43,505 nt of DNA, taken from the NCBI GenBank assembly GCA_001303185.1, contig LJNP01000003.1, forward strand, positions 1 to 43,505, given 5' to 3'. Both the position numbers and the translations under genes were made by a program. Below the pieces are notes generated by a model. The model worked only from the letters and a program-made list of their open reading frames with translations. It was not told the origin of the DNA and ran no database searches. Position 1 is the stretch's first letter. Every line of letters begins with the position of its first letter. The DNA comes from Parcubacteria bacterium SG8_24 (lineage in GTDB: Bacteria; Patescibacteriota; Patescibacteriia; SG8-24). Shown piece by piece: positions 1 through 42,976 of the stretch.

Positions 1-822
1 CACGCCGACGATTACGATCAGTCCGGCGAACAGGCCGACATCCAGGTGCTCGCCGCCGAACACCAGGAACAGGAAAATCGGCCAGATGACGAAACCGACC
101 TCGCCCTCGGCGCCGAGCGCCACCATGGACCAGGTCATATCCCGGTAATCACTCGAGAAAAGACGGCGGAAAGTCTCGAAAAAACCGAACTCGTAACGCA
201 CCCGGACCCGCGGCAGGAAGGCCAGGGGGATGAGCGACAGGAGTATCACCACGATGCCGACCAGGAAGGCCGCCCCGTAACCGTAGGAGGCGATCAGCAC
301 CCCTCCCAACATCGGCGCGCCGATGCCGATCAGCTGCTGGGCCGCATAGAATATGCCGATTTGCCGTCCCCTCTTGCCCTTCGTCGAGAATTCGGCGAAA
401 TCGACATGAAACGGCGCCCAGTAGAAACAGTTGAAGACGCCGAGGGAGACGACGATGATGCCCAGCATGAGCCAGGGATGGAAGTCGGGGCGGGTCGCCA
501 GGGAGAACGAGGTCACGTAGAAGACCACCCAACCGGCCGTGCCGACGACCATGCTCGGTATGAGCCCTATCCGCGAGAATATCCGGGCGGCCCAGACGAA
601 AAGCGGCAGGCGGATGAGACGCGATATCAGGAACCACAGGAGGACCTTGGACAGGCTCAATCCGAAGAACTCGTAAAGGAAGATGGGGAAGAATATCCAG
701 ATGAGGTTCGACGCAGCGAAACCCAAAAGACGGTTCGTCGCCAGCGAAGGCAGGGCTCCCAGATGCCTGACGTCGAACCGATGGGAGGGTGGTGTCTGTT
801 TCTGATGTCCGAAAAACCGCAT
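1..822 (-). CDS. MFS transporter, 5' part (runs off the window start; not in the ORF track)
   Basis: Manual translation from ATG 822: MRFFGHQKQ...LIWIFFPIFLYEFFGLSLSKVLLWFLISRLIRLPLFVWAARIFSRIGLIPSMVVG...KGKRGRQIGIFYAAQQLIGIGAPMLGGVLIASYGYGAAFLVGIVV. Many TM helices and an MFS motif-C-like G-x-x-x-G-A-P-x-L-G-G. Confidence 0.8.
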   Translation of the reverse strand, partial: MRFFGHQKQTPPSHRFDVRHLGALPSLATNRLLGFAASNLIWIFFPIFLYEFFGLSLSKVLLWFLISRLIRLPLFVWAARIFSRIGLIPSMVVGTAGWVVFYVTSFSLATRPDFHPWLMLGIIVVSLGVFNCFYWAPFHVDFAEFSTKGKRGRQIGIFYAAQQLIGIGAPMLGGVLIASYGYGAAFLVGIVVILLSLIPLAFLPRVRVRYEFGFFETFRRLFSSDYRDMTWSMVALGAEGEVGFVIWPIFLFLVFGGEHLDVGLFAGLIVIVGV

Positions 823-978
823 AGGGCCATTGTACAACCCTGGGGCCGACAACGGAACGTCCGGACCTTCGGGTCAGTAAAAAAGAAACCCCCCATGAAC
901 CTGGGAGGCAGAGACGATGTCGTCTTTTTCGCGGGCCGGTCGATGGCCTGTCGACGGCTCCGGATGATGCCGGTCCGG

Positions 979-1500
979 TCACCGCCTCTCGCGGTAGGCC
1001 AGGTCTTCCCGTAACGCCCGGACCAGCTCATGGAGCGTCGTCGCCCCGAGCAGGCCGGAAGGACACTCCATCGGCGCCTCGGTCGAGGCGAACCGACGTG
1101 GCGTGACGTACCGGACCAGGACGATATTGTCCTTGGTGTAGACCGCCTCGATCATGAACTTGCCGCCCCGGAACATGATGCAGGAGTCCTGTCTGGCGAC
1201 CAAGGGCATGAAACCCTTGACCTTGCTGTCCTCGACCGCCACCACCGACACGTGGCTGATGACGTTGACCTCAAGACCGATGAGCTCCGCGGGAGGCTCC
1301 TCTTCCGGAGGCGACAGGAGACGGTCGTTCAATATGAGGATATAGGCGATCAACGAAGCGGCGGCGATCACGATGATGGCCTTGCCGACCTTGATGCCCG
1401 GAGTATCCCGATGACCCTCCGGCTCCATCCGGTCCTTTTCCTTGACTTCCCGATGATTCCCGTTGCCCTCAGGCATGACGTCCTCCGATCCTGATATCAC
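979..1500 (-). CDS. hypothetical protein with one N-terminal TM helix (start may be ATG 1476)
   Basis: Hydrophobic segment AIIVIAAASLIAYILIL; upstream minus-strand TTGACA-N17-TATGGT promoter. Confidence 0.6.
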   Translation of the reverse strand: MISGSEDVMPEGNGNHREVKEKDRMEPEGHRDTPGIKVGKAIIVIAAASLIAYILILNDRLLSPPEEEPPAELIGLEVNVISHVSVVAVEDSKVKGFMPLVARQDSCIMFRGGKFMIEAVYTKDNIVLVRYVTPRRFASTEAPMECPSGLLGATTLHELVRALREDLAYRERR

Positions 1501-1661
1501 GACAGAAGATCACAATGAACATCCCGGCACCATAACTCACTGCCCGCGTCATGTCAAAGGTGTCGGCCCACCGCATGCCGACGGCCCGGCCACGACATTT
1601 CCCGGCCGCCCGATGTCATAAAAAAATCCGGCGCGCTGGACGCCGGAGTAAGGCATATATC

Positions 1662-2357
1662 TCAGGACACCAACACCAGCCATTCGCCGGTGCCGAGCTC
1701 CCGCTCCATCGGATCCTTCGTCGGATCCCGCTTCTCCCCCACAGGAATGCAGCCGGGCATGAGCTGCATCAGGGGAACCATCGCGTCCATCCTCTTCTGG
1801 TTGCCGCCGACGGCGAAACCGACGAAATAGAGCAGGGCGTGGCAGAGGTTCTTGGGCAAGGACTCGCAGAGACGGTAGCCGAAACCGGATTGCCGCAGAG
1901 CGGTCTGCAGGCTGTCCGTCAACGGACGGCACAAGGACCGGTCCAGCACCCCCCATAGGGCATCGCCGAGCGACGGGCGCTTCTGGCCCTTGATCAGGGG
2001 CTGCTTCAGCGGGCCCCACATCGTCACGTTATGCTTGGCCCACAACGCGTCGAACAGCATCCGCTCGAGCGCGTACCACAGGCCGTTCCTCTCCCGGTTA
2101 CCCGACTCACGTTCGGCATCGTCGATTGCCCGGGCGATGGAGATGAACCGCACCGCCTCGACACGACGGACGACCGCCAGGGCGATGGCCCGCTTCATCT
2201 CTACGGCATCGAATTCGTCTTCACTCTTGAGCGGATACGGCCCGTTGTCGGCCATCTTGATGAAAGGGTTGAGGTATTCAAATGCCCGGAACACCAGTGC
2301 CTGGTCGACCGCGTGCTTCTCGCAGAACTCTCGCAACTGCTCCCGATCGGTGTTCAT
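1662..2357 (-). CDS. hypothetical protein
   Basis: MNTDREQLREF...; GGAGGA SD before ATG 2357; TTGACA-N17-CATGTT upstream (2439-2467). Confidence 0.7.
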   Translation of the reverse strand: MNTDREQLREFCEKHAVDQALVFRAFEYLNPFIKMADNGPYPLKSEDEFDAVEMKRAIALAVVRRVEAVRFISIARAIDDAERESGNRERNGLWYALERMLFDALWAKHNVTMWGPLKQPLIKGQKRPSLGDALWGVLDRSLCRPLTDSLQTALRQSGFGYRLCESLPKNLCHALLYFVGFAVGGNQKRMDAMVPLMQLMPGCIPVGEKRDPTKDPMERELGTGEWLVLVS

Positions 2358-2519
2358 AGGATTATCCTCCGAAGGTTGTGATGATGGAATGAACCGCGCC
2401 ACCGGACGACTGTCTGAAGCCAGGCGGCGATACAAGTAAACATGGCATAATCGGCGCCTTTTGTCAATCCTCGGAGGAAAACTTCCGGGAGGTCCGCGGA
2501 ACAAAAAAAAGGCCGCGAT

Positions 2520-3272
2520 TCAATCCTCGATATCGCGGCCGGAGAGCACGTCCCAGACCATCCGGACGATCCGGCGGACCGCCGGATCCTCTGCCCCCCT
2601 GATGTCGGGCCGGCCACTGACAGACCATTCCAGGATGGTCTGACCCAAAGGATGGCCGTCCCACAGGAGGAAAAAGACGTCCCGACGCCGTACCAGGCCG
2701 GATCGGGTGGTGCCCCGAAGCGTAGCGACCTCCTCCGGCCGGTCGAACATCTGACGCAACGCCTCGACATCCATGCCCGGAAAAGGCGGGATGATGAGGC
2801 CGCGCTCGTTGAAGACCTCGTCCACCGCATGCTTCCTCCGGATGCCGACTTCACCGTTTCCGACCCGCAATCTTTCCCGGGTCCTCGGATGGACATGGCC
2901 GTTCCGGGCCATCAGGGCGTCGGTCTCGTCGATCAGACTCCTGACCTCATCCAGAGCCACTCCCCTCTGCCAGGCGACGAAGGAACCGCTCAGGTCCAGG
3001 AGATGCACGACCCAGGCATCCTCGAACCGGACCCCGTCCGGACGGCGGCTGACGATAATGTCATGACGCTTGCCGGAAGTGGCGCGGACGCACGGACTGC
3101 CGGCCGTCGGGTGACAGAGCCGTCGCTGGGCGACTCCCGGGATATCGGTACCGAACTTGATCACCAGATCGTAGAGGTTGGCCAATCCATCGCTGTCCAG
3201 GCCGGAGAGTGCCGGCGGAACGACGATCGGCGTGAAAGACAGGTTCTTCATAACCGGCCTCCCGGTCTCCAC
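2520..3272 (-). CDS. hypothetical protein (start 3272 GTG or 3251 ATG)
   Basis: 250-aa ORF with protein-like composition, unlike the overlapping shadow ORFs. Confidence 0.6.
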   Translation of the reverse strand: METGRPVMKNLSFTPIVVPPALSGLDSDGLANLYDLVIKFGTDIPGVAQRRLCHPTAGSPCVRATSGKRHDIIVSRRPDGVRFEDAWVVHLLDLSGSFVAWQRGVALDEVRSLIDETDALMARNGHVHPRTRERLRVGNGEVGIRRKHAVDEVFNERGLIIPPFPGMDVEALRQMFDRPEEVATLRGTTRSGLVRRRDVFFLLWDGHPLGQTILEWSVSGRPDIRGAEDPAVRRIVRMVWDVLSGRDIED

Positions 3273-3451: not shown

Positions 3452-4531
3452 TCAGGAACCCTCCTCCGTGACATCCGGATCTTTTGTCTCCGGATTCGCG
3501 GTACCGTTCTGCTTGGCGGCGCCGTTCACCTTACCGTTCCTGGACTTGACCGCTTCCGACGGGCTCTCCTTCCGGGTCTCGGGAGGCTTCTCCTCGATGA
3601 TGCGCCGATGCAGAGCGATGCATCCCTCGATGATCCGCCCCACTTCCTCCGGAGGCAGCTTGCTGCCGAGCTCACGCGGCGAACCGCCATGGTTCTTGCC
3701 GCCGCCCCAACCCTTAGTCAGGTCATCGATGCCTTCAGCCTCATTGAGGGCCAGGCAGATCAGCTTCACCGGGAAAGGGATGAACGAGGAGAGCCGGCCC
3801 AGGGCATAGTGATACCTGTCGCCTTCGGAGGCCCGCAGCTCGACATAGGCAGTGATGCCCTTGCTGGCCATGCCGAACCTGGCGTGGATACCGACGCTCC
3901 GTACCAAGGCCCAGTCCTGATAGGATCCCAGGACCTCGAAACGGGTATCGAGCTGCAGCTCCTTACCGCGCCCGAACAGGGTGCTGCGGACCCGACGGTG
4001 CATCTCCTCCACCAAGGCCTTCATGTTCCTGGCATCCATGGCTGTGAGCTCCCCGTTATGCCGGGCCTCGGTATAAGGCTCGCTGATCCAGGCCAGTTGT
4101 CTGATCAGCTGGCTGTCGCTCTTGTCGGCAGGGAAAAGCCCGGCCGACATGTCGAGGTGGTCCTCGAGACGCACCAGCTCGCGCAGGCGGGCCCGGGGGA
4201 CGTGATCCGGATACGACAGGACGTAAGTGGCCAGCACCACGTCCTGATCGCAATCGTTGAGATACAACGTCGCCTTAGGCTTGCCGTTCCTGGTCTGGAA
4301 CGTCTTATACAGCCCCAGCTTGACCAGACACAGGGCCTGTTCACAGCTGGAACGGGTCGCCATGGAGTCGACATCCTCATGATGGTTGATGTTGAGAATC
4401 AACCCATCAGGCGTCGAACGAGGCGCCCCCTTACAATAACCGTCGACAGCGATGCTGAACGGGGGATACTCGCTGCTGAAAGCGTCCCATTCCACCACCG
4501 TCCTCGGCTCGAAGATCATCTTCACTGTCAT
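3452..4531 (-). CDS. DHH-phosphoesterase-like hypothetical protein
   Basis: Motifs AVDG, NINHHE, NDCDQD, LEDHLD and C-terminal WGGGKNHGGS (DHHA1-like GGG); GGGAGGT SD; TTGACG-N17-TAAATT promoter. Confidence 0.55.
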   Translation of the reverse strand: MTVKMIFEPRTVVEWDAFSSEYPPFSIAVDGYCKGAPRSTPDGLILNINHHEDVDSMATRSSCEQALCLVKLGLYKTFQTRNGKPKATLYLNDCDQDVVLATYVLSYPDHVPRARLRELVRLEDHLDMSAGLFPADKSDSQLIRQLAWISEPYTEARHNGELTAMDARNMKALVEEMHRRVRSTLFGRGKELQLDTRFEVLGSYQDWALVRSVGIHARFGMASKGITAYVELRASEGDRYHYALGRLSSFIPFPVKLICLALNEAEGIDDLTKGWGGGKNHGGSPRELGSKLPPEEVGRIIEGCIALHRRIIEEKPPETRKESPSEAVKSRNGKVNGAAKQNGTANPETKDPDVTEEGS

Positions 4532-4744
4532 GTCTGTACCTCCCGCGACGGTCGGCGATCTCCCTGGATTCTAAAGGACTCCGGAGGCAATTTATCGCGG
4601 CGGTCTGGGGGCGTCAAGGAGGCCGGGGAGGACTCCGGCGACACGCCGACCTGACCAGGGACCGAGGCCGGCGTGGCTCCACTTGAAGTTAAAGCGGAGC
4701 CGATGCTATACTTGACGCGAAATCCGCTTAACCTGGGTCAGGGT

Positions 4745-5194
4745 ATGGCGATCCATATTCCGTTACTCAACAAAAGCGGTGAGGAGGACGTGGTCCTTTT
4801 CCCTCAAGCCGAAAAGAGATCGGCGAGCGGGAGCGGGACGACCGAGGCCGAACCGTGGCTTGAAGGTCAGGACGAAGGACAACTGGCCGTCGATGTCTTT
4901 GAGACCGAGGGGGAGATCGTGGTGAAATCGGCTATCGCCGGCGTCAAGGAAGAGGATCTGGAGGTGTTCCTGCACAATGACATGCTGACGATCCGCGGCC
5001 AGCGGACCCATGACAGCGAGCCGAGCGCGCGCTATGCGGTGCGCGAATGCCACTGGGGGCCCTTCTCCCGCTCGCTGATCCTGCCCAAAGAGATAGACGC
5101 CGACCGCATTGCGGCCACGCTCAAGAACGGGATCATGACGGTGCGCCTGCCGAAAATCGAGCGATCCAAGAAGATCTTCGTCAAGAAGCTGTGA
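4745..5194 (+). CDS. small heat-shock protein, Hsp20/alpha-crystallin family
   Basis: LAVDVFET..IVVKSAIAGV..EDLEV..DMLTIRGQR..ECHWGPFSRSLILP..IAATLKNGIMTVRLPK. Confidence 0.93.
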   Translation: MAIHIPLLNKSGEEDVVLFPQAEKRSASGSGTTEAEPWLEGQDEGQLAVDVFETEGEIVVKSAIAGVKEEDLEVFLHNDMLTIRGQRTHDSEPSARYAVRECHWGPFSRSLILPKEIDADRIAATLKNGIMTVRLPKIERSKKIFVKKL

Positions 5195-5254
5195 CGGCCC
5201 GTCCGGTGACGACGGATGACGGGCCGGGTCAGCGGACATACTGCCTCAATCTAC

Positions 5255-7222
5255 ATGAAGACGAACCGCGCCGGATCGGCCGACCTGTTACGGGCCCGCG
5301 GGGTCCGGAAGGCCGGCCGCGGTAAGAACATCAGACAAAGGGTCAGGTCACCCTTTCCGGTTCGGGGGGTGGCTGTTTTTCTGTTCATCCTGACCGCAGT
5401 CCTGATCGGCACCTTCGGACTTTTCGCCCGCCCTGGCGGATCCGGCATCGTCGAGGGGGTCTATGTCGGTCCGGTCTATGTCGGCGGCATGACCATCGAA
5501 GAGGCACGCGAGGCTATCCGGACCCACGTTGACGGGTTCTCCTTGACCTTCACTTCGCCGCTGGGTGGGGCGTCCGTCCTGCCCCCGAGAGGTGGTCAGG
5601 TACGCCCGCTGCTCTCCTTCGAGACGGAATCGGCCCTCGATCAGGCCTTCGGCATCGGACGCCATTCCAATATCCTGATGGCCGCGGCCTCCCGTCTCGG
5701 CGCCTCGATGTTCGGGAAACGTATCGCCCTGCCGCACTCCCTCGATGAGGAGCTGCTGGATACCCTGTTGCACCGGGAGATGAGCGACCTGATACGGCCG
5801 ACGCGCGAGGCCGGCCTCCGTATCGTGGTCGACGAAGATGGGAATTATCATATCGAGGTCGTACCGGAGCGGGCCGGCACGGAGATCGATGTCGACCGAC
5901 TGATCAGATTGGCCCGTCAGCGGGTCGAAACGGTATCGTCTGAACCGATTGAGGTCGAGATATCCGAACACGATCCGAGCATCCATGTCTCGGATGTCGA
6001 GCCGCTCGTATCGGAGGCCGGGCCGATCCTGGAAAGACTGCCGTTGGACGTGTCGGTCCAGGGTGAATCATGGACGATCTCCCGTCAGACCGTCGCCTCC
6101 TGGCTGATCACCTCGCTCCAAGGGGATGCCGGAGACGACGGGGTGGTCCTGACGCTGGATCGGGACAAGATGCGCAAATACCTCGAGTCGCGTGGCACCT
6201 CAATCCATACCGAAGCCAGCGACGCCGTCTTCCGGCTGGAGGACGGACGGGTCGCCGAATTCATCCCCAGCACCGAAGGCCGAAGCCTAGATCTGGAGGC
6301 ATCGATCGAGCTGCTAACACGGCTCATACTGGAGGGTAGCGAAACGGGCGGAGAAGTGGCCGTCCTGCCGATCACCACGGTCAGTCCGAAAACAGACACG
6401 GCCACCTCAAACCCGTTCGGGATACGGGAGATCATCGGGGTCGGCGAGACCAATTTCCGCGGCAGCCCCAGCAACCGAAGACATAATATTGCCGTAGGCG
6501 CAGCTACGCTCAACAATATCCTCATACCGCCCGGTGAAGAATTCTCCCTGATCGGCGCCTTGGGCGAAATCGACGCCGCGCACGGTTACCTGCCGGAACT
6601 GGTCATCAAGGAGACGGAGACCATACCGGAATACGGCGGGGGGCTCTGTCAGATCGGCTCGACCGCGTTCCGTGTCGCCCTGGACAGCGGACTCCCCATA
6701 ACCGAGCGCCGCAACCACTCCTACCGCGTCCCCTACTATGAACGCGACGGGGACGGCAATTACATCGGGCCGGGCATCGACGCCACCATCTATGATCCGG
6801 CGCCCGACTTCAAGTTCATCAACGACACCCCGGCCCATATCCTGATCCGGACGGCCATCGACGGCAACCGCCTGACCTTCACCTTCTGGGGCACGGATGA
6901 CGGCCGGACCGTGGAGATGTCCGACGTCAAGGTCTGGAACTACCAGCCGCCACCAGAGACCAAATACGTCAAGACCACGGAACTGCCGATCGGCGAAGAA
7001 AAATGCACCGAGAGTGCCCACGCCGGCAGCAATACGGCCTTCACCTATACGGTCACTTACGCCGACGACGAGAAGAAAGAGACGGAATTCGTCAGTTATT
7101 ACCGACCCTGGCAGGCCATCTGCATGGTCGGAGTCGATCCCAGCGAACTGGAAAAAGAAGAGGCCGGCGAAATCAACCCGGAGATGACCGATGTCGACAC
7201 GGCCGGAGTCACCGGTGACTGA
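5255..7222 (+). CDS. VanW family protein with N-terminal TM anchor and PG-binding-4-like repeats (start uncertain)
   Basis: NRRHNI...IPPGEEFS...YGGGLCQIGSTAFRVAL.SGLPITERRNHSYRVPYY...GIDATIY..PDFKFINDT. Confidence 0.9.
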   Translation: MKTNRAGSADLLRARGVRKAGRGKNIRQRVRSPFPVRGVAVFLFILTAVLIGTFGLFARPGGSGIVEGVYVGPVYVGGMTIEEAREAIRTHVDGFSLTFTSPLGGASVLPPRGGQVRPLLSFETESALDQAFGIGRHSNILMAAASRLGASMFGKRIALPHSLDEELLDTLLHREMSDLIRPTREAGLRIVVDEDGNYHIEVVPERAGTEIDVDRLIRLARQRVETVSSEPIEVEISEHDPSIHVSDVEPLVSEAGPILERLPLDVSVQGESWTISRQTVASWLITSLQGDAGDDGVVLTLDRDKMRKYLESRGTSIHTEASDAVFRLEDGRVAEFIPSTEGRSLDLEASIELLTRLILEGSETGGEVAVLPITTVSPKTDTATSNPFGIREIIGVGETNFRGSPSNRRHNIAVGAATLNNILIPPGEEFSLIGALGEIDAAHGYLPELVIKETETIPEYGGGLCQIGSTAFRVALDSGLPITERRNHSYRVPYYERDGDGNYIGPGIDATIYDPAPDFKFINDTPAHILIRTAIDGNRLTFTFWGTDDGRTVEMSDVKVWNYQPPPETKYVKTTELPIGEEKCTESAHAGSNTAFTYTVTYADDEKKETEFVSYYRPWQAICMVGVDPSELEKEEAGEINPEMTDVDTAGVTGD

Positions 7223-7518: not shown

Positions 7519-7681
7519 GGTATCGGCCCTGCCGGCACCGTTTCGCCAAAAATGAGCCTAAAACGGGTTCCGTTGGCCTCCGATAAGCCGGCCGCGACCC
7601 TTGACATCCGGCCTCGGTTATGTCATCATGACGCGTTGGTCGTTCCTTGGAATAACCGGATAAAAGAAAAGAGGAGGAATC

Positions 7682-7942
7682 ATGAAAACCGGTAAATTGT
7701 TGGACAGGAAATGCGATAACTCGCGGCGCGAATGCCCGCACGGTCGTGGCGGATCATGTGACTGCTGCCACGAGAACGCGGGGGCCGACCTGGGTCTCTG
7801 CATCCACGGCCTGGCGGATGACGTCGTCTGCCTCAGCTGCCTGTCGAAGGGCTGCGTCGGCGGCGGCGAGTGCAGCTGCGACACGGCGTCATCGGAAGAG
7901 ACCCGGAGACGGGTAGCGCTCTTCTGCCGCTCCTTCTCCTAG
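7682..7942 (+). CDS. small Cys-rich protein (86 aa, 12 Cys, 3 His), putative metal-binding
   Basis: GAGGAGG SD; TTGACA (7601)-N17-CATCAT promoter; CDCC, CLSC and CSC clusters. Confidence 0.65.
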   Translation: MKTGKLLDRKCDNSRRECPHGRGGSCDCCHENAGADLGLCIHGLADDVVCLSCLSKGCVGGGECSCDTASSEETRRRVALFCRSFS

Positions 7943-8184
7943 CCGCCCGGGTGTCCGGCCCGCCTGAGGTGCCCTCGTGCTCACCGCGAGGGCCCTTGCC
8001 CGAGACCTTCTCACTGAGGAGATCTCAGGCGAGAGGATGAAGTACCTTCAAGAATGATGACGGCATCGGTGGGTTCCTGACGGGACGGCCTGGGCGCCCC
8101 GACGGCGCGAGACCGACCCGGTCCCACCGACAACTGATGGAATCTCGAGTGCCCCGCCTGTTTCCTATTCCAAGGAGCTGTGAC

Positions 8185-8682
8185 ATGAATCCGACAGGAA
8201 GAAGGCCGGTGACCTTGCCGGTCCAGACGAACGAAGGAGTGTTCTGCCAGGGTATCCGCAAGGCGCCCGCGGACTCCGACCGGGAAGAAGGCCGGAGAAG
8301 ACGCGGTTCCAAGAGGGAGATCCGGATCCGCTTCGAAGAGGGCGGATTCATCCATCGGGGTCTCTTCGCCCATATCCTCCATATCATGGAGGATCGGGAG
8401 GTCGGATACTCCGAGCTTTTCGAGCGGGGTCCCGTGAGCATCGAGGCCAGCCGGACGGAAGGCGGCATCACGATGGAAGTGGCGATCGAGATCACTGCGG
8501 AAGGCGATCAGTCGCCCCGGACGGTCAGGCCCTACCTGGATGAGGTGTCCGTCGCCGAAATCGAGAAACGGGTCACCCAGATCGATGCCCTGCTCTTCGA
8601 CTATCGGCTTGACGCTGACGACGAAGCCGTCCGGACATCCGTCACATCGGGCAGTTCGACGGCGGCGACCGTCGCCCGTTGA
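8185..8682 (+). CDS. hypothetical protein
   Basis: AAGGAG SD before ATG 8185 (in frame with ORF 8137); followed by a terminator. Confidence 0.6.
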   Translation: MNPTGRRPVTLPVQTNEGVFCQGIRKAPADSDREEGRRRRGSKREIRIRFEEGGFIHRGLFAHILHIMEDREVGYSELFERGPVSIEASRTEGGITMEVAIEITAEGDQSPRTVRPYLDEVSVAEIEKRVTQIDALLFDYRLDADDEAVRTSVTSGSSTAATVAR

Positions 8683-8841: not shown

Positions 8842-9450
8842 TCAGGTGATGACCTTGTCGATCAGGCCGTATTTGATCGCCTCCTCGGCGCTCATGAAAT
8901 AATCGCGGTCCGAGTCCTTCTCCACCTTCTCGAACTTCTGGCCGGTGCGGTCGGCCAGGATACGATTGAGGGCGTCCTTCATCTTAAGTATCCGCTCAGC
9001 CCTGATCTTGATGTCGGTGGCCTGGCCTTCGGCTCCGCCCATCACCTGGTGGATCATCACTTCGGCACTCGGTAGAGCGAACCTCTTGCCCTTGGCGCCG
9101 GAGGCCAGCAGCACCGCACCCATCGAGGCGGCCATGCCCACGCAGATGGTCGCCACATCGGGTTTGATGTGGTTCATCGTGTCGAATATCGCCAGGCCAG
9201 CCGTAACCGAACCTCCGGGACTGTTGATGTAAAGCTTGATGTCCTTGGTCTTGTCCTGACTCTCCAGGAAAAGCAGCTGGGCGATGATGATATTGGCCAT
9301 CGGCTCGGTGATGACATCGCCCAAGAAGACGATACGGTCCTTGAGAAGCCGAGAATATATGTCGTAAGCCCGTTCGCCGTAAGCGGACTTCTCGATGACC
9401 GTGGGTATCAGATAAGAGCTGAGTGAATTAACGGAATAGGGATTGGTCAT
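8842..9450 (-). CDS. clpP: ATP-dependent Clp protease proteolytic subunit
   Basis: [39 protein letters not shown] (catalytic Ser), VMIHQ (His), DRDYFMSA (Asp). Confidence 0.98.
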
Positions 9451-9575
9451 AGTTTCGTGATCATCTCTATCCGAGTATAGCGCCGTTGCGACACCATGTA
9501 AACGACCGCCTTGACCGCCCCGGACCGCTGGGCTAGGGTGAGACGAAGCACCTTAAACCCGTCAAGGAGGCCGAG

Positions 9576-10256
9576 ATGAGAAACTGCCCCCGGCCAGTCA
9601 TGACCTGCCTATCCGTCCTGACCGTCGCCCTACTGTCATCCGCCTGCGGTGACGACACTCCTGATATCACGGAACTCACCATCCGCTCCGACGATATCCA
9701 CGAGGGCGTCCTGCCCGCCATCAAGGACCTCGGCACCCTGGTGAGTGTGAGCGCCAAGGACAGTTCGGGCCAGGAAGTCGATGAGCGCACCCTGGGCTGC
9801 GTCACCTGGATGTCGAGCGATAAGACCGTCCTGGACGTCAAATCGCTCGGCGGTTCGGCCATGATCAAGGGACGTGAGGACCTTTTCGATGCCCTGACCG
9901 ACGTGACGACCCTGGAAGATCTGCTGCAGACGCCGGAACCCTCGGCCACGCTGACCGCCAGCTGTGGCGAGACCAGCGACGAGATAGAGGTCCGGGTCGT
10001 GCTCAACGCCGGAGGCCTGTGGCAGATCGTCCTCGACGACGGCGCCTATGAGATCGAACTGGATCTCGCCCAGTCCGGAAGGAGACTCTTCCACGAGATG
10101 ACCGGCGCCGAAGGGACGATCGACGGCACCCGATTCATCCTCAACCAGTTCGGCTACGAACTGGACGGTCACTTCCTGGGACGGGATACGGCGTCAGGAA
10201 CCTACTCCTCATCCGGAGGCAGTACCGGGACCTGGACGGCCCAAAAGACAGACTAG
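9576..10256 (+). CDS. lipoprotein with Ig-like (Big_2-type) segment
   Basis: Lipobox LSSA-C; VTWMSSDKTVLDV resembles the Big_2 motif; AAGGAGG SD. Confidence 0.65.
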   Translation: MRNCPRPVMTCLSVLTVALLSSACGDDTPDITELTIRSDDIHEGVLPAIKDLGTLVSVSAKDSSGQEVDERTLGCVTWMSSDKTVLDVKSLGGSAMIKGREDLFDALTDVTTLEDLLQTPEPSATLTASCGETSDEIEVRVVLNAGGLWQIVLDDGAYEIELDLAQSGRRLFHEMTGAEGTIDGTRFILNQFGYELDGHFLGRDTASGTYSSSGGSTGTWTAQKTD

Positions 10257-10335: not shown

Positions 10336-11304
10336 TCAGTGGACCGACCAACGGTCCTTACCTTCGACGATCCGGCCGGTCACGGTGAAACCGGCCGCCT
10401 TCCGGTGACCCCCACCGCCGATGGCGGCGGCGATCTCCGAGACATCCACCTCCTGGGCCGTCCGTAGGCTGCCCTTGACCCTTCCGCCCGGTACCTCCTT
10501 GAGCAAGAGGACGACCTTGGCGTCGAGGAAATTATTGAGGAAATTGATGAACCCGCCCATATATTCCTCGTCCACTTCCCGCCCGCCGAGATCGTCGACG
10601 AACAGGGCGGTGGAGGCGACGCCCAGCTCCCGGTCATACTTGAGCCGGGCCAGCAGGTCCCCCCAAAGGCGCAATGCCGGCACGGGCTTGTTGCGCAGCA
10701 GGAAACGTGAGATGAGGTGCGACCTGGCGCCGCGCCGCAACAGGTCTGAAGCGACCTCGAGCGAACTGCGGGTCGTGGCCGGATTGGTGAAATTACCCGT
10801 GTCATTGAGTATCCCGGTCAGCAGGGCTGTAGCGATCTCCCGGTCGACCGGCAGATTGAAATGGTCGAAAAAGCGGTACAGCAGCTCCGACGTGGACGAG
10901 GCGTGTTCATCGACCACGTTGACGTCTCCGAACAGCCGATTGGTCTTGTGGTGGTCGATATTGACGATGCGGGGGGTCCCGGCGGGACGTCGGACGATGA
11001 GCCCGTTGATGCCGGCGTATTCCAGATCGCCCGCATCCAATACCGCGATGACGTCATAGGCCTCATCCGAAAAGACCGTCCGGTCGGTAGTGAACCGCTC
11101 CAGGCCGGCCAGGTACCGGAACTGCTGGGGCACGGGGTCGACACAGAACCCGGCGGCCGGTACGCCCAAACGGTCGCAGAATCCCAACAGGGCGCTGCCC
11201 GCCCCGAGCGCGTCCCCGTCCGGTTTGCGGTGGGCCACGACCAATACGCCCTTCGCCAGGCGCAGGCTATCGAACGCACGCTGGAAATCAAAGACGATAT
11301 CCAT
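10336..11304 (-). CDS. nrnA: DHH/DHHA1 phosphoesterase (NrnA-like oligoribonuclease / pAp phosphatase)
   Basis: HRKPDGDALG, VLD, NIDHH, GILNDTGNF, KGSLR, GGGGHRKAAG. Confidence 0.9.
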   Translation of the reverse strand: MDIVFDFQRAFDSLRLAKGVLVVAHRKPDGDALGAGSALLGFCDRLGVPAAGFCVDPVPQQFRYLAGLERFTTDRTVFSDEAYDVIAVLDAGDLEYAGINGLIVRRPAGTPRIVNIDHHKTNRLFGDVNVVDEHASSTSELLYRFFDHFNLPVDREIATALLTGILNDTGNFTNPATTRSSLEVASDLLRRGARSHLISRFLLRNKPVPALRLWGDLLARLKYDRELGVASTALFVDDLGGREVDEEYMGGFINFLNNFLDAKVVLLLKEVPGGRVKGSLRTAQEVDVSEIAAAIGGGGHRKAAGFTVTGRIVEGKDRWSVH

Positions 11305-11522
11305 ATTTCCGATGTCTCGAGCCCCCAAGGTTAGCAACGCTGTCCAGGAACGTCAACCCGGACCGACCGCCAAGACCCCGTGCCTTCGGGACAGCACACC
11401 GTGACGCCTAACCAGCCTATTGCAGATAACGCCTGACCTGCTACAATTCCGCTGGAAAGGGGCGGCACCTTGGGTCAAGGACGGCCGCCATATTCATCAT
11501 TCATCGCCGCTGAAATAGGCTT

Positions 11523-13874: not shown

Positions 13875-14291
13875 TCACAGGCAATAATCCTGCAGCGGTC
13901 CGTACCTTGCCTTGAACTTCTGCCAGTCGCGGATAACGAGCCTTCCGGGGTGCCTTTTCTTCACTCGCCTGAACAGTCCCCTCGAATGCGGGTCCCAACC
14001 GAAGGCGAAAAGCCTCTGCTCGCGCCGGAGCGCCGCTTCGAACAGGCGATCCGCCACCCCCCGACCGCGGAACCTTTCGTTGACGAAGACGTTGGCGCAT
14101 TTGCCGAAAGGCGTCGGAAAAACCATCAGCCATCCCATGACCTGACTACCGTCACTGAAGGCCACGAACGTCCTCGTTGCCGGCCTTTTACGGACGATGA
14201 AACGCATACTCCCGTTCTCGAAGGTAGCGTACAGCAGACGCCGCTGGACCTTCTTGCTCCAGGTCCGGAATGCTTTAGAGACCACTCTCAT
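13875..14291 (-). CDS. GNAT-family acetyltransferase-like protein
   Basis: Acetyl-CoA motif A VFVNERFRGRGVADRL; AAGGAGG SD; TTGACA-N17-TACGAT promoter. Confidence 0.75.
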   Translation of the reverse strand: MRVVSKAFRTWSKKVQRRLLYATFENGSMRFIVRKRPATRTFVAFSDGSQVMGWLMVFPTPFGKCANVFVNERFRGRGVADRLFEAALRREQRLFAFGWDPHSRGLFRRVKKRHPGRLVIRDWQKFKARYGPLQDYCL

Positions 14292-14505
14292 GACCCCTCC
14301 TTGTCAGAAAGAACATCCTATCGTATAACCGCGTGTATGGACTGTCAATGAGGCCGATCTTACCTCGAGCTGCACCTTGACGGAAAACCTCATCCAAAGC
14401 ATAATCCCCACTACGACAAGCCCTACTGCTGCGAGGGCCACACGGATACGGGACCGCTCATCCCTAACCCCGGAGCCGCCCTGAATCGAACTTAAACCAA
14501 GGAAC

Positions 14506-14886
14506 ATGATAGTCATCAGACTTTCCCGAGTGGGCAAGAAGAAACAGCCGACCTACCGCATCGTGGTCCAGGAGAAACAGCGTGACCCCTGGGGCACTTC
14601 TCTGGAGATACTCGGCCACTACAACCCGCGCACCAAACCCAAGACCGTCTCCTTAAAGGAAGAACGGGTGCGTCACTGGCTGGCCCAAGGTGCCCGACCG
14701 ACGCCGACCGTGCATAATCTGCTGGTCGATGCCAAACTGATCGAAGGGTCGAAAGTCAAGGCGACCCAAGGAGAACAGAAGAAGCGGCAGGAGGCGGCCC
14801 GAAAGAAAGCCGAAGAGGCCCCCAAAGAGGCGGCAGTGGCCGCCGAAGCCCCTTCGGCCGAAGACGCCCCGACCGAAACGTCCTGA
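14506..14886 (+). CDS. rpsP: 30S ribosomal protein S16
   Basis: MIVIRLSRVGKKKQPTYRIVV...LGHYNP...WLAQGARPTPTVHNLL plus an Ala/Glu-rich tail. Confidence 0.97.
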   Translation: MIVIRLSRVGKKKQPTYRIVVQEKQRDPWGTSLEILGHYNPRTKPKTVSLKEERVRHWLAQGARPTPTVHNLLVDAKLIEGSKVKATQGEQKKRQEAARKKAEEAPKEAAVAAEAPSAEDAPTETS

Positions 14887-15533: not shown

Positions 15534-15642
15534 GGATATCCACCCTTGCCAAAAAGGGGGTTCCGTGGAAAGATGCCCTGACGCCCGTCGATACGGGTCG
15601 TCTGTCGCTACTCGGACCTCTGGCGTTTCAGGAGATGACACG

Positions 15643-17867: not shown

Positions 17868-19374
<1,507 letters not shown>

Positions 19375-28414: not shown

Positions 28415-28511
28415 AAGTCGCGTGAGCTGATGCTGAAATCCTATCATCCGCTGATGCAATTCACAACGCGCCCGGCGGCCCGCCGGATACCGACATCGCG
28501 GCCGGAAAACC

Positions 28512-32510: not shown

Positions 32511-32553
32511 AGGCTTGTGGTCATGATGGCGAACGATGCGTCAGGATGGATGC

Positions 32554-36072
<3,519 letters not shown>

Positions 36073-36371
36073 AAAGAGACGTGGAGATCTCCCCTGCACC
36101 GGGGTTTTATTATTATGGTAGGTGGCGACGTGCGCCGCCCATCCTTCGTCGTGACACCCATCCTCACGACCGCTGTGGAACGATGGGCGTGGTATACAAA
36201 AATAATCCCCTGCCCTCCGTTGCTCACGAGCATCCGCAGACAGGGAAATCTCGACTCGGCCTCGATTTAGGTTATGATGCCGGTCAACATCGCGTTATTC
36301 GCTGATCCACGATGACCACCAGGAATCATCGTCATTCCTCTCTATCCTTAATAGGAGAGAAGTTCGGCATG

Positions 36372-36600: not shown

Positions 36601-36779
36601 GTTATGTTCGCACGGATTCTCGACAAGTGACCAAGGAGTGCCTAACGGGATAACGCGCGACTGGAACCTGTACCTTTCACTGCGATCGCCGCAGCATCGT
36701 CCGTCCCGATGGTCGGGACGTGTCATGAGCTCGGACCAGGTGGCCCGGAAGGGCCTCCCCAACCGCAAGGAGAAGGAAA

Positions 36780-37517
36780 ATGAAAAAGAAAGGCCAAGGA
36801 CATGGCGACGGGAGGGGTGGCAACGGGGCCACCGGGAAAAACGGACACGACACGGAGAAGACCCGCTATCGGTGCCGCTCGGCGGGCTGCGAGATGAGGG
36901 GCACGGCCGACATGATGTTCAACCTGCCGTGCAATCCCGGTCGGGTGACGGAAGAGGAACTGCTGGAGAAAGTGCTCTGTCACGCCTGTGCCTCTTCTGT
37001 CGCGTCCCTTGCCGGCAAGGAGCCCCGCGACAAGGGATCTGGCGTCTTCCCGCTCAGCCGGACCTTCGAGCTCCGACGTCGGCTCAACCACCGACGGTCC
37101 GAACGGCAGAAGGAGCTCGACGACTACCGCCGCTGGGTCGAGGAGAGCAACTACCGGAGGACGATCCGTGATTATGCCATCCGGTATGCCCAGGCCGAGG
37201 TCAGCGAACTCTTCGGTGACGGCTCATTGGCCGGCTCGCTCCCCCTGCCGCGGACTTCCGCTGCGCCCGACGGGTCCCTGTGCTGCGGACTGCCGATCGA
37301 GTGCTGCGGACACCACCGTCCGACCCGGCGTTTCCTCACCGTATTCGGTGAGGTCGTCGGCATCTGCGACCGGGCTGCCAGCGTCTTCATCGACGTCTTC
37401 CGTGAGCACGAGGAGACCGAGGGTTTCCGACGGCTCCTCTCCACGTCAGATCTGGAGATGGCCCGGCATATCGCGGCCAAGTGGCTCGGTATCGGCCGGA
37501 GCGGCGCAGGCGGCTGA
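36780..37517 (+). CDS. Cys-rich hypothetical protein, putative zinc-binding
   Basis: AAGGAG SD; CRSAGC...CHAC and CCGLPIECCGHH...ICD clusters separated by a charged helix. Confidence 0.7.
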   Translation: MKKKGQGHGDGRGGNGATGKNGHDTEKTRYRCRSAGCEMRGTADMMFNLPCNPGRVTEEELLEKVLCHACASSVASLAGKEPRDKGSGVFPLSRTFELRRRLNHRRSERQKELDDYRRWVEESNYRRTIRDYAIRYAQAEVSELFGDGSLAGSLPLPRTSAAPDGSLCCGLPIECCGHHRPTRRFLTVFGEVVGICDRAASVFIDVFREHEETEGFRRLLSTSDLEMARHIAAKWLGIGRSGAGG

Positions 37518-37546
37518 AAGCGGCCCCTCTGAAGGAGACAGACGGA

Positions 37547-37720
37547 ATGGTAAGGAAACTGATCGCTGCCGCCCTGGTCATCGGAGGTGCCGCAGCGATT
37601 CTCCTGCCTGGTGGTATCCCCATCATCCTCGCCCTTCTGGCACTGCACCGGGCCAAGACGGCCCGTCTCAAGACTGAAGGCGAGCTGTCCGGCGACCCTA
37701 CCCACGCCGAACAGGCTTAG
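37547..37720 (+). CDS. small membrane protein (57 aa, helical hairpin)
   Basis: MVRKLIAAALVIGGAAAILLPGGIPIILALLALHR; AAGGAG SD; terminator follows directly. Confidence 0.6.
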   Translation: MVRKLIAAALVIGGAAAILLPGGIPIILALLALHRAKTARLKTEGELSGDPTHAEQA

Positions 37721-38092: not shown

Positions 38093-38168
38093 GACCTCCG
38101 GACACGTTGGTTTTTAAATAGGTAAATGGTATGCTGACCTCGGATTCCGTAAGGAAGACCTCTTGAAT

Positions 38169-40364
<2,196 letters not shown>

Positions 40365-40367: not shown

Positions 40368-41105
40368 ATGACTCCGGTGACGACACAAGACAGGACAGCG
40401 ACCGATATCGGGACACTCCTGCGCACCAGGCGCGAGGAGTTCGGCCTGTCTCGGGAGAAGGTGGCCCAACAGACCGGTTTGCCGCTCAAGTACCTGGTGA
40501 CACTCGAGGAACAGGACCTGCATCGTCTACCTAACGACGTCTATACCCGGATCTACCTCAAGACCTATGCCCGTTTCCTAGGGGTGGATGATGCGGTAGT
40601 GGCCGGAACGCTGGCGCGGCTGAGACAGGTGCACCATCCTGAGGAGAGCGGCGATTTCGGTCCGGAATCGCGCCGGAAGCACCCTCGGACGTCCGTCCCG
40701 ACCAAGCATCTGCTGGTGACACCCAAACTCATCCAGCGGGCCCTCATCCTGTTCGCGGTCTGCGGTCTGGGCGTCTACCTGGTCTCCGCCGTCAAGGATA
40801 TCGTCGCGCCGCCGGAGATCTCCCTCTATAACCCTCGCGACGGATATGTCACTGCTGACAACAGCGTGATGGTCGAGGGTAAGACGGAGCGTGAGGTGGT
40901 GCTTCACATCAACGGCAAGATGGTACCGACGGATGAGGGGGGTAACTTCACCGACACGCTGGAGCTGCAGACCGGCCTTAACGTGATCAAGGTCGTCGGC
41001 ACCAAGAAACACAGCAAAGAGATGGTCATCACGCGCCGCGTGATCGTCCGGCCCTCAGACCGTCCGACAGCTTCGCTGAAGGACGTCCGGGAGGGGGGGT
41101 TGTGA
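40368..41105 (+). CDS. RodZ-like HTH (XRE) membrane protein with a C-terminal Ig-like domain
   Basis: IGTLLRTRRE..GLS..YL..LE..LP.DVYTRIYLKTYARFLGVD; one TM; PPEISLYNP.DG..V.GKTE..L.TGLNVIKV. Confidence 0.85.
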   Translation: MTPVTTQDRTATDIGTLLRTRREEFGLSREKVAQQTGLPLKYLVTLEEQDLHRLPNDVYTRIYLKTYARFLGVDDAVVAGTLARLRQVHHPEESGDFGPESRRKHPRTSVPTKHLLVTPKLIQRALILFAVCGLGVYLVSAVKDIVAPPEISLYNPRDGYVTADNSVMVEGKTEREVVLHINGKMVPTDEGGNFTDTLELQTGLNVIKVVGTKKHSKEMVITRRVIVRPSDRPTASLKDVREGGL

Positions 41106-41174
41106 CGCGGGCACTTGCCCGAACCGCGTAAAGCGGTTATATGACGACCGTTAAGTCATTCTCAATAACGCACT

Positions 41175-42257
41175 ATGGCGAACACGAATAAACAGGCCAA
41201 ACCTAAAGCTCCCGCCAAAGAGGCGGAAGCGCAGCAGGACGGACGATCGCGGGCAGTGGGAGACGCGATCGAACAGATCCGTCAACGTTTCGGCGAAGGA
41301 TCGATCATGAAGCTCGGAGAAGCCAAACGTAAGGACATCGAAGTCATCCCGACCGGCTGCCTGTCGCTCGACCTGGCGCTCGGAGTGGGCGGAGTGCCTC
41401 GTGGCAGGATCGTCGAGATATACGGTCCGGAATCTTCCGGTAAGACGACGCTGGCCCAGCATATCGTAGCCGAGGTCCAGAAACTCGGCGGTACGGCGGC
41501 CTTCGTCGACGCGGAACACGCCCTCGATCCGGCCTATGCGGCCAAGATCGGCGTCAACGTCAAGGACCTGCTGATCTCCCAACCCGACACCGGCGAACAG
41601 GCGCTGGAGATCGTCGAGACGCTGGTACGTTCCGGCGCCGTCGATGTGGTGGTGGTCGATTCCGTGGCAGCGCTCGTACCCAAAGCGGAGATCGAAGGTG
41701 ACATGGGCGACCAGCACATGGGTCTGCAGGCCCGACTGATGAGTCAGGCGCTCCGCAAACTGACCGGTATCGTCTCCAAGACCAAGACCACGGTCATCTT
41801 CATCAACCAGATACGCCAGAAGATCGGCATCATCTTCGGGAATCCGGAGACGACGACCGGCGGTACGGCGCTGAAATTCTACTCGTCGCTGCGCATCGAA
41901 GTGCGGCGCTCGGCCCAGATCAAGCAGAACGACAAGGTCATCGGCAATCAGGTGAAAGTGAAGGTGGTCAAGAATAAGGTGGCGCCGCCGTTCCGTACCT
42001 GCCAGTTCGATATCATGTATAACGAGGGCATCTCGGTGGCGGGCGACCTCATCGATCTCGGAGTCCAGACCGGGACGATCACCAAGAGCGGAAACAGCTA
42101 TTCCTGCGGGGAAGTGAAGCTGGGAGTAGGACGGGAGAATGCCCGGCTCTTCCTGCGGGACGAGAAGAAACTCATGAAGGAACTCCGCCAGACCATCATC
42201 AAGACAGTACGCGAGGCGGAGACGGCCAAGATGGCGCCGGAGAGAACCCCGGCTTAG
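41175..42257 (+). CDS. recA: recombinase RecA
   Basis: [65 protein letters not shown]. Confidence 0.99.
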
Positions 42258-42263
42258 ACCGAT

Positions 42264-42329
42264 AAAACGCCGGCCGCCCGGCCGGCGTTTTGGGCAGACG
42301 ATAAAAGCGTCCCCGTAGGGGACGCTTTT
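42264..42329. terminator. two tandem bidirectional terminators between recA and efp
   Basis: AAACGCCGGCC-GCCC-GGCCGGCGTTTT and AAAAGCGTCCCC-GTA-GGGGACGCTTTT. Confidence 0.8.
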
Positions 42330-42402
42330 GGTCGGTCCTAGAAGAAGAACGGTAATATCCGGATGAGGTCGCCGCCCGGACGGTCGGCCGCACCTTTTGT
42401 GG

Positions 42403-42966
42403 TCATTTCGCCCTCTCCACGTACAGGCCGCTCTCCGTATTGATGATGACCTCGTCTCCCTGCTCGATGAACAGCGGCACGTCAATCTTCATCCCGGTCT
42501 CGAGCGTCACTTCCTTCTTGACGTTGCCGGAAGCGGTATCGCCTTTCACTGCCGGCATCGCTTCCGTGACCTTCAGCGTCAGTTTCTTGGGCAGATCGAC
42601 GGAGAGGGGTGAACCCTCATGGAACAGCACGATGACCTCCTGACCCTCGGTCAGATAACCGCCCTTATCCCCGATTAGTTCGGCGGAGATGCCGAGCTGT
42701 TCGAAGGTCTCGTTGTCCATGAAATGGAATCCCGAATCGTCCCTATAGAGATACTGGACCGTCTTCCTCTCCAGTTCGGCCAGTTCGATCGCCTCACCGG
42801 CCTTGAAGGTATTGTCGAGGACCTTGCCGCTCTGGACGTTGCGGAGTTTGGTGCGGATGAAAGCGCTGCCCTTGCCCGGATTGACGTGCTGGAAATCGAC
42901 GACCTGATAGACGGCGTCCTTGAAGATGATGAACACGTCCTTCTTGAGTGAGGTGGTATCGGCCAT
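42403..42966 (-). CDS. efp: elongation factor P
   Basis: FQHVNPGKGSAFIRTKL (PGKG, modifiable Lys), QYLY, FMDNETFEQ, PAVKGDTA, VPLFIEQG. Confidence 0.98.
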   Translation of the reverse strand: MADTTSLKKDVFIIFKDAVYQVVDFQHVNPGKGSAFIRTKLRNVQSGKVLDNTFKAGEAIELAELERKTVQYLYRDDSGFHFMDNETFEQLGISAELIGDKGGYLTEGQEVIVLFHEGSPLSVDLPKKLTLKVTEAMPAVKGDTASGNVKKEVTLETGMKIDVPLFIEQGDEVIINTESGLYVERAK

Positions 42967-42976
42967 AATCCAACGG

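Follow-up and report, generated by a model that had tools for sequence, protein, structure and literature searches.

A U before AUG and the Shine-Dalgarno sequence mark two mutually exclusive start contexts in Parcubacteria bacterium SG8_24

How ribosomes choose their start codons is the question raised by a stretch of 43,505 nucleotides (contig LJNP01000003.1, positions 1 to 43,505, hereafter the window) from Parcubacteria bacterium SG8_24 (assembly GCA_001303185.1). The original prediction, drawn from this window, held that recognisable housekeeping genes begin with a T directly before ATG (T-ATG, or U-AUG in the mRNA) and lack a strong Shine-Dalgarno (SD) sequence, while orphan and accessory genes are led by a strong SD. 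The two start contexts exist throughout the genome and exclude each other, and we consider it probable that default start selection in this bacterium and its relatives is independent of SD and uses a U(-1) context, with the classical SD route serving a minority of genes. The window is one contig (C36) of a genome (G000) of 1.117 Mb in 67 contigs with 61.5% G+C, in which T is indeed a minority base (19.3%). The closest named relatives of its RecA come from Patescibacteria metagenome-assembled genomes labelled Uhrbacteria, Kerfeldbacteria, Falkowbacteria, Magasanikbacteria and Parcubacteria.

Within the window, all candidate starts of 37 open reading frames (ORFs) were listed with 25 upstream bases, and the ORFs were scanned against Pfam. 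The 16 genes named as T-ATG starts are all present as described and none has a 5-nt SD core between -18 and -4; 16 of 20 recognisable genes with T at -1 against a background of 0.22 corresponds to a binomial p of 6e-8. Likewise, the 13 starts listed as SD-led all possess AGGAG/GGAGG-type cores at normal spacing, with T at -1 in that at 2357 only, and two further SD-led starts were found at 1476 and 3251 on the minus strand. The 16S rRNA gene (17868-19374) keeps its anti-SD, as had been stated. The word “orphan” turned out to be wrong for three of the 13, which Pfam assigns to a GNAT acetyltransferase (14291), a sigma-70 family factor (15643) and a ClpX-like AAA+ ATPase (26014). When starts are set by a uniform first-ATG rule, 15 of 32 window ORFs have T at -1, and the 32 divide into 12 T-ATG starts without SD, 11 SD starts, 2 C-ATG starts and 7 others. 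Ortholog alignment backs the chosen starts of hsp20 (4745), yebC (28414), smc, khpA, rpoB and efp. The start sites are as follows.

820..823, minus strand: MFS transporter start, T(-1) and ATG (822); a TANNNT box lies 6 nt upstream, and the gene may be leaderless
4744..4747, plus strand: hsp20 start, T(-1) and ATG (4745); alignment to the same-family ortholog supports this start
9448..9451, minus strand: clpP start, T(-1) and ATG (9450), without SD
11302..11305, minus strand: start of an nrnA-like DHH/DHHA1 gene, T(-1) and ATG (11304); T-ATG in both relatives
11522..11525, plus strand: smc start, T(-1) and ATG (11523), homology-anchored
15146..15149, plus strand: khpA start, T(-1) and ATG (15147), homology-anchored
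21138..21141, plus strand: mgtC start, T(-1) and ATG (21139)
22139..22142, plus strand: NUDIX start, T(-1) and ATG (22140)
27131..27134, minus strand: galT-like start, T(-1) and ATG (27133), the first ATG beyond the end of ruvC
27693..27696, minus strand: ruvC start, T(-1) and ATG (27695)
28412..28415, minus strand: yebC start, T(-1) and ATG (28414), fitting the alignment offset to the same-order ortholog
32508..32511, minus strand: rpoC start, T(-1) and ATG (32510); 43 nt after rpoB, operon-internal and not leaderless
36070..36073, minus strand: rpoB start, T(-1) and ATG (36072), homology-anchored
38168..38171, plus strand: ftsK start, T(-1) and ATG (38169)
41174..41177, plus strand: recA start, T(-1) and ATG (41175)
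42964..42967, minus strand: efp start, T(-1) and ATG (42966), homology-anchored
1474..1492, minus strand: SD-led start 1476 of an unannotated ORF, the last gene of a four-gene SD-led cluster (979-4531)
2355..2373, minus strand: SD-led start 2357, the sole listed SD start with T at -1
3249..3267, minus strand: SD-led start 3251, absent from the earlier list
4529..4547, minus strand: SD-led start 4531; the same-family ortholog is SD-led too
7666..7684, plus strand: SD-led start 7682 of an 86-aa ORF
8169..8187, plus strand: SD-led start 8185
9560..9578, plus strand: SD-led start 9576
14289..14307, minus strand: SD-led start 14291, GNAT acetyltransferase
15627..15645, plus strand: SD-led start 15643, sigma-70 family factor
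19995..20016, minus strand: SD-led start, GTG 20000 or ATG 19997, with the strongest SD of the window (duplex free energy, dG, -14.1)
20804..20822, minus strand: SD-led start 20806
22634..22652, plus strand: SD-led start GTG 22650
26012..26030, minus strand: SD-led start 26014, ClpX-like AAA+ ATPase
36764..36782, plus strand: SD-led start 36780 of the gene 36780-37517
37531..37549, plus strand: SD-led start 37547 of a 57-aa predicted membrane peptide
14506..14508, plus strand: rpsP start (exception), C at -1, with a weak AAGGA upstream
16924..16926, plus strand: trmD start (exception), C at -1, without SD
40368..40370, plus strand: rodZ-like start (exception), C at -1
5216..5257, plus strand: vanW-like start (exception), ambiguous between ATG 5216 with G at -1 and ATG 5255 with C at -1
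19365..19376, plus strand: 16S rRNA 3′ tail with intact anti-SD, CCTCCT at 19367-19372

For the whole genome, coding regions were called with our own 3-periodic Markov coding-potential ORF caller (990 ORFs), and the default start was the first in-frame ATG after the upstream stop (935 ORFs), a definition blind to both SD and the -1 base. At these starts the -1 base is T in 53.2%, C in 23.7%, G in 16.6% and A in 6.5%, whereas T precedes 5.1% of the 4692 in-frame ATGs inside ORFs and 13.5% of all NATG (30003), and T has a frequency of approximately 0.13-0.27 at each position from -20 to -2, with none above 0.27. The enrichment rises with confidence in the start assignment, reaching 58% for the 179 starts that are unambiguous because no other start codon lies within 25 codons, and 85% (T 139, C 18, G 6, A 1) for the 164 homology-anchored ones, where a reciprocal-best-hit alignment begins no more than 6 residues into both proteins with an offset of at most 2. 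Anchoring and conservation were judged with two relatives, a complete genome of the same order (G022, 1,167,441 bp) and a partial genome of the same family (G011, 385 kb), the latter belonging to a different genus with a RecA 80% identical. The orthologous anchored starts in the same-order genome have T in 111, C in 42, A in 7 and G in 4.

The starts behind the original prediction were hand-chosen, partly by their SD, as it cautioned itself, and our caller is home-made, so that the pattern might be thought an artefact of start choice or gene calling. Yet all three definitions above ignore SD and the -1 base, and the excess of T persists in each of them. Moreover, a cruder longest-ORF method, applied alike to loci of the Candidate Phyla Radiation (CPR) and to other bacteria, gave T at -1 in 65% of 172 genes from 17 named CPR loci (local T background 33%) and in 67% of 113 genes from 12 unlabelled or otherwise-labelled high-identity loci, whereas 623 genes from 51 non-CPR loci had 28% against a background of 24% (p = 0.006, marginal). 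Since non-CPR loci run near background through the same code, the signal is not a product of the method. On these independent start definitions and controls, start-choice artefact was rejected, and we find it hardly credible.

Having a T at -1 and having an SD turn out to be alternatives. SD starts were defined by an exact match of at least 5 nt to AGGAGGT within -18 to -4, and a second measure was the dG of the duplex with the 16S tail, with a threshold of -7 kcal/mol or below. By the first measure 152 of 935 genes (~16%) belong to the SD class, compared to 5.2% of internal ATGs, and T at -1 falls from 414 of 674 SD-less starts (61%) through 56 of 109 with a 4-nt core to 27 of 152 SD starts (18%), an exclusion with a Fisher odds ratio (OR) of 0.14 and p = 3e-23 for SD against SD-less starts. 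The unambiguous starts repeat it (93/134 SD-less vs 4/28 SD), and so does the second measure, by which dG is -7 or lower in 15.7% of starts with T at -1, 35.1% with C, 40.6% with G and 45.9% with A, internal-ATG controls standing at 19.2%. At SD starts, the T frequency of 0.18 at -1 does not rise above that of the neighbouring positions, and the SD peaks at the canonical -10 to -7. The -1 base of SD-led genes is free, and the two signals therefore appear to substitute for each other. Both relatives show the same division: in the same-order genome (914 starts, T 48% and C 33% at -1) T precedes 12% of 122 SD starts and 54% of 718 SD-less starts, and in the same-family genome (290 starts, T 55%) 11% of 55 and 68% of 220. 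No such exclusion was seen in the 51 non-CPR loci, where 42 of 138 SD starts have T at -1 against 28% overall.

The surroundings of the two kinds of start differ as well. T-ATG start regions are AT-enriched (49% GC), G-poor and weakly folding, with a mean minimum free energy over -30 to +30 of -9.9 kcal/mol, compared to -13.2 for SD starts and -17.6 for windows around internal ATGs. U at -1 is the sole strong position in the profile of the 414 T-ATG genes; an A-rich Kozak-like context is absent from it, A amounting to 0.24-0.35 at -3, -6, -12 and -13.

The usual transcription start dinucleotide has a pyrimidine at -1 and a purine at +1. A T followed by the A of ATG obeys that rule, and leaderless mRNAs, with transcription beginning at the A of the start codon, would thus produce the same pattern. 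Some genes do look this way: TANNNT begins at -12, at -14 or at -15 in ~6% each of the 213 T-ATG genes that are first in their unit, compared to 0-1% of 112 SD genes, and the window offers MFS 822 and smc 11523 as examples. However, the profile of the 414 T-ATG genes has no fixed -10 box, and TANNNT drops to ~1% in 134 operon-internal T-ATG genes. T-ATG is also common inside operons, accounting for 117 of 193 genes that lie 0-30 nt behind a co-directional gene (SD for 17), for rpoC at 43 nt after rpoB, and for nearly the whole ribosomal-protein operon of another contig (C42), in which 17 of 20 ORFs have T at -1 and one, secY with a distal GAGGT core, is of the SD class. Genomes with leaderless transcription (GeneMarkS-2 group C) are marked by a -10 box at fixed distance and by confinement to first genes, and neither is found here. 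Position profiles, the TANNNT scan and operon position therefore led us to reject leaderless transcription as the main cause, which it is very unlikely to be, while a minority of T-ATG genes may be leaderless or nearly so.

Which genes take which context was examined by conservation, a conserved gene being one with a reciprocal best hit in the same-order genome (432 of 935 proteins). Such an ortholog exists for 28 of 152 SD genes (18%), 235 of 414 T-ATG genes (57%), 67 of 137 C-ATG genes and 102 of the remaining 232 (SD vs T-ATG, OR 0.17, p = 8e-17). Put the other way, conserved genes are 6.5% SD and 54% T-ATG, and non-conserved genes are 24.7% SD and 35.6% T-ATG; equal SD use in the two gene classes, which would have spoken against the original prediction, is not what we see. 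By the second measure, dG of -7 or below is reached by 16.0% of conserved genes, 19.2% of internal-ATG controls and 35.4% of non-conserved genes. Conserved genes thus have no SD pairing beyond chance although the 16S anti-SD is canonical, and the genome is SD-poor in its conserved genes, not SD-free.

SD genes are the less conserved in all four length bins, which rules out gene length as a confounder. They also stand mostly first in their transcription unit (112 vs 21 internal), and among first-in-unit genes the contrast holds (16/112 SD vs 108/213 T-ATG with an ortholog, p = 4e-11), but operon-internal genes show no significant difference (9/21 vs 83/134, p = 0.15). Pfam classes, compared in the same-family genome on all 55 SD ORFs and a random 95 of its 149 T-ATG ORFs (E <= 1e-5), point the same way with hits in 20 of 55 (36%) and 73 of 95 (77%; OR 0.17, p = 1.6e-6). 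The T-ATG sample includes DnaA, DnaB, Pol I, SMC, EF-Tu, NusG, GatB, a tRNA synthetase and six ribosomal proteins, and the SD sample includes peptidases (Lon-like, M3, M50, M10 and trypsin-like), a cation-efflux protein, a type IV secretion system pilin, a lytic transglycosylase and a cysteine-rich repeat protein, but also tmk, gmk and RNase T. An N-terminal hydrophobic stretch is found in 37.5% of SD genes vs 26%, a modest bias toward secreted or membrane proteins. The split proposed between core and orphan genes accordingly survives as two mutually exclusive contexts with mostly non-conserved genes on the SD side, and it is real but statistical, a trend and not an absolute rule. What does not survive is T-ATG as a speciality of housekeeping genes, as it is the default of the whole genome, 36% of the non-conserved genes included, and largely of the phylum.

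A division of this sort could arise without any regulatory meaning if the SD class were an evolutionary residue, with recently acquired or fast-evolving genes keeping the SD of their donor, which would still function thanks to the intact anti-SD, and old genes having drifted to the default. The low conservation of SD genes at the order level, which persists per length bin and among first genes, and their fewer Pfam hits are what such a history would leave, and SD status indeed flips between order-level orthologs, being retained in only 4 of 28 with most counterparts T-ATG. Within the family the picture is different. SD is matched by SD in 15 of 28 ortholog pairs with the same-family genome, and T-ATG by T-ATG in 61 of 90; restricted to 82 anchored pairs, the counts are 9 of 14 and 43 of 55. 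The -1 base varies freely among the SD-SD pairs (read from the list), and an SD kept while the adjacent base drifts points to purifying selection on the SD and not to decay. SD genes have in addition a higher G+C content at third codon positions (0.815 vs 0.789, p < 1e-6) and form no islands (26 adjacent pairs vs 22.8 expected), so that they do not resemble recent AT-rich imports and foreign AT-rich islands are ruled out. Lastly, one ancient gene, rpsU, has the best-conserved SD of all. Taken with these points, the residue explanation strikes us as improbable.

The excess of T at -1 extends to most of the Patescibacteria sampled. In 80-kb pieces of 15 further genomes of the phylum, with 53-75 genes each (small samples of related and hence non-independent genomes), T at -1 stands significantly above local T background (p < 0.05) in 11, the values being 79% and 57% in two genomes of the same class, 53-62% in seven, 38-44% in five and 24% in one. 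The last of these, a GC-rich genome (G067, 63% GC), prefers C (45%) over T.

What would read the U at -1? The initiator tRNA (contig C11:11794-11868, plus strand) has an anticodon loop ending CAU-A-A, with A37 next to the anticodon, and A37 is present in all 12 CPR initiator tRNAs checked (this genome, the same-order genome and 10 others), which leaves no variation at position 37 to compare. Pairing between U(-1) and A37 has been demonstrated in E. coli with compensatory tRNA mutants, according to the accessible text of Hollerer & Jeschek (bioRxiv 10.1101/2022.05.02.490318). Both systems share a U before the start codon and an A37; the E. coli effect, as described there for SD-led mRNAs, is small and modulatory, whereas here nearly every conserved start without SD has the U, which is gone where an SD exists, and C is tolerated, which the A37 pairing model does not explain. 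Given the E. coli mutants, the U(-1):A37 contact is the obvious candidate reader, and the tolerance of C leaves room for another. The tRNA has two further peculiarities, C33 and an A29:U41 pair at the place in the anticodon stem where the first of three G-C pairs is expected; C33 is shared with the same-order genome and G071 only, the nine other CPR genomes checked having U33. U33 is near-universal in tRNAs. Extended-anticodon pairing is also said to have been described by Esposito et al. in the Chlamydomonas chloroplast.

The interpretation that we favour, and hold to be probable, can be outlined as follows. The default start lies in an open, AT-enriched, G-poor and weakly structured region and has U before AUG, with C as second choice and purines avoided. 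U(-1) would most likely help to hold the initiator tRNA at AUG by the known “fourth base” contact with A37 of tRNA-fMet, and its role would be the same at transcript 5′ ends and within operons. The ribosome keeps a working anti-SD, and a minority of genes, ~16% of all and 25% of the lineage-specific ones, mostly first in their unit, use a strong, normally spaced SD. In these SD-led genes the -1 base is free, and rpsU, encoding ribosomal protein bS21, is the one universally conserved member of the class. The existence of the two contexts, the exclusion between them, their unequal conservation, their persistence between orthologs and their taxonomic spread follow from the data above, whereas the A37 contact and any regulatory use of the SD class, including the possible regulon gated by bS21 considered below, are our inference.

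Several observations weigh against this interpretation. Gene calls and starts come from a simple home-made caller, and the first-ATG rule misplaces some of them. SD use by the 5-mer criterion (16%) is not far below that of mixed non-CPR controls (22%). The exclusion between SD and T at -1 is clear only within the same class, and SD starts of distant CPR often have T at -1 (8 of 16 in G080, small numbers as elsewhere). Internal in-frame T-ATG is under-represented (observed/expected, O/E, 0.61), but the test is ambiguous because A-ATG is depleted more (0.23). The A37 step is the most exposed: C stands at -1 in 33% of starts in the same-order genome and in 45% in G067, whose initiator tRNA also has A37, which does not favour strict pairing. 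As A and C cannot pair, the requirement may be “pyrimidine, not purine”, perhaps read by something other than A37. G067 is in this respect a useful counter-example for the pairing model.

The gene rpsU deserves separate attention. In this genome it lies at contig C54:5279-5536 (plus strand), has a GTG start and is preceded by an extended SD with up to ~12 nt of pairing to the 16S tail, of which the dG of -16.9 is equalled or surpassed in only 3 of the 935 other genes. A search of 31 genomes of the order yielded 29 rpsU loci, each with a purine-rich box, recognised by eye, that can pair over 6 or more consecutive bases with the 16S tail and lies ~5-8 nt before a start that is GTG in 24 and ATG in 5; T is at -1 in 26 of the 29. 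A similar box precedes a TTG start in a distant CPR genome (G045), and the boxes parallel the autoregulation by bS21 proposed for Flavobacteriia. The protein itself is present here and was found in 51 of 61 genomes of the phylum searched, and bS1 of this genome, whose gene has a T-ATG start, contains four S1 domains.

These facts allow a further alternative, in which bS21 and its neighbours bS18 and bS6 would hide the anti-SD in mature ribosomes, and ribosomes lacking bS21 would favour SD-led mRNAs, namely rpsU by autoregulation and the lineage-specific SD class. Translation would then truly be controlled by gene class. The accessible text of Jha et al. (2021, PMC7797042) gives this logic for Flavobacteriia. 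What speaks most for it is the conservation of the SD before rpsU: in its extended form this is kept in 29 of 29 loci of the order, set against 4 of 28 other order-level orthologs, and the wide occurrence of bS21 agrees with it. Internal SD-like hexamers are, moreover, not avoided in conserved genes (O/E 0.91-1.01), unlike in non-CPR (0.71-0.78), but this test is weak as control motifs scatter over 0.58-1.17. The strong SD of rpsU could also merely offset a weak GTG start. Occlusion is invisible from sequence, and bS21 aligns with the F. johnsoniae chain 7jil_z only weakly (E = 0.43, residues 5-43), too weakly for comparison of the key residue. The main argument against simple occlusion is that the other SDs are so many and so normal: Flavobacteriia have almost no SD genes besides rpsU, whereas 16% here, with canonical spacing and conservation within the family, suggests that the anti-SD is routinely available. 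We regard gating by bS21 as possible but on balance unlikely. A bolder form of it, in which U-AUG in an unstructured context would act as a four-base general code and the anti-SD as a separate channel switched by bS21 occupancy, with rpsU and the SD-led lineage-specific set (proteases, envelope and unknown proteins) as the regulon, is more speculative still and should be thought improbable. If it were true, ultra-small bacteria with few transcription factors would possess two-channel translation.

SD-independent initiation by the favoured route, with SD for a minority, has precedents in part. In Bacteroidetes, Flavobacteriia among them, the anti-SD is sequestered, initiation is SD-independent and rpsU bears an SD (Jha et al., 2021, PMC7797042; Baez et al., 2019, PMC6847099, both in their accessible text). 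As there, the anti-SD here is canonical, conserved genes lack an SD, start regions are weakly structured, leaderless mRNAs give no explanation, and ribosomal-protein genes are SD-less except rpsU with its strong conserved SD. The differences, judged on the same parts of those papers, are that the context signal in Flavobacteriia is A at -3, -6, -12 and -13 and here a single U at -1, that there is a sizeable SD-led class here (~16%) conserved within the family, that the phylum is Patescibacteria, and that anti-SD occlusion is here only putative. GeneMarkS-2 places genomes with weak or unclassified start signals, such as many Cyanobacteria, in “group X” (PMC6028130, accessible text). Like the weak-signal genomes described in the accessible parts of that paper and of PMC5397173, this one has few SDs, some remaining SD-led genes, a pyrimidine bias just upstream of the start and reduced structure; unlike them, it has one sharp position, U in 85% of anchored starts, that is anti-correlated with SD. 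For the CPR, Tsurumaki et al. (2022, PMC9297842) report in the accessible text that about half of Parcubacteria have lost the anti-SD motif, that bS21 is often absent and that bS1 is short, traits which imply SD-independent initiation. That text contains no analysis of start-codon context, and our genome keeps its anti-SD and bS21 and has a bS1 with four S1 domains.

SD-poor genomes with an anti-SD, an SD-bearing rpsU, U(-1):A37 pairing and a pyrimidine bias at non-SD starts are thus all in print for other lineages. A full-text literature search, covering few subscription journals and no supplements, found no account of a U(-1) context in CPR/Patescibacteria, nor one of a mutual exclusion between this context and SD or of a conserved SD before rpsU in these bacteria. 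CPR are absent from the phylum table of Nakagawa et al. in its accessible form, and a term search of the accessible GeneMarkS-2 text (PMC6028130) did not find “Candidatus”.

For annotation the consequence is direct, as CPR are known almost only from metagenomes: predictors that reward SD will misplace their starts, and the T-ATG rule, true of 85% of anchored starts, is a simple and strong prior. Heterologous expression of CPR genes and future CPR genetics will likewise need the correct start context. A U(-1) that is near-universal where SD is absent, in so large and deep a radiation, would make the latter the natural system for how the 30S subunit finds starts without SD. The conserved SD of rpsU in an SD-poor lineage beyond Bacteroidetes suggests that feedback between bS21 and the anti-SD is either ancient or evolved more than once, and organisms so poor in regulators may have, in the family-conserved SD class, a regulon controlled at translation.

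Some smaller observations concern individual SD-led genes and start calls. Three ORFs of 123-175 aa on different contigs (a608, a659 and a922 on C45, C1 and C26) have an identical ~16-nt leader with T at -1, and these leaders are the strongest SDs of the genome (dG about -20); they may be paralogs of one family or copies of an expression module. Window positions 979-4531 on the minus strand hold four consecutive co-directional ORFs (starts 4531, 3251, 2357 and 1476) without Pfam hits, each having its own strong SD. The 57-aa ORF at 37547-37720 (plus strand), which was too short for the ORF caller and hence missed by it, is SD-led, has one predicted transmembrane helix and adjoins the 3′ end of the SD-led gene 36780-37517. 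Finally, the longest galT-like ORF (26186-27484, minus strand) overlaps ruvC (27183-27695, minus strand) by 300 nt. Past ruvC, the earliest start of the galT-like gene is the T-ATG at 27133; a longest-ORF annotation would therefore be ~117 codons too long, and the overlap is an example of a start-calling error in this genome.

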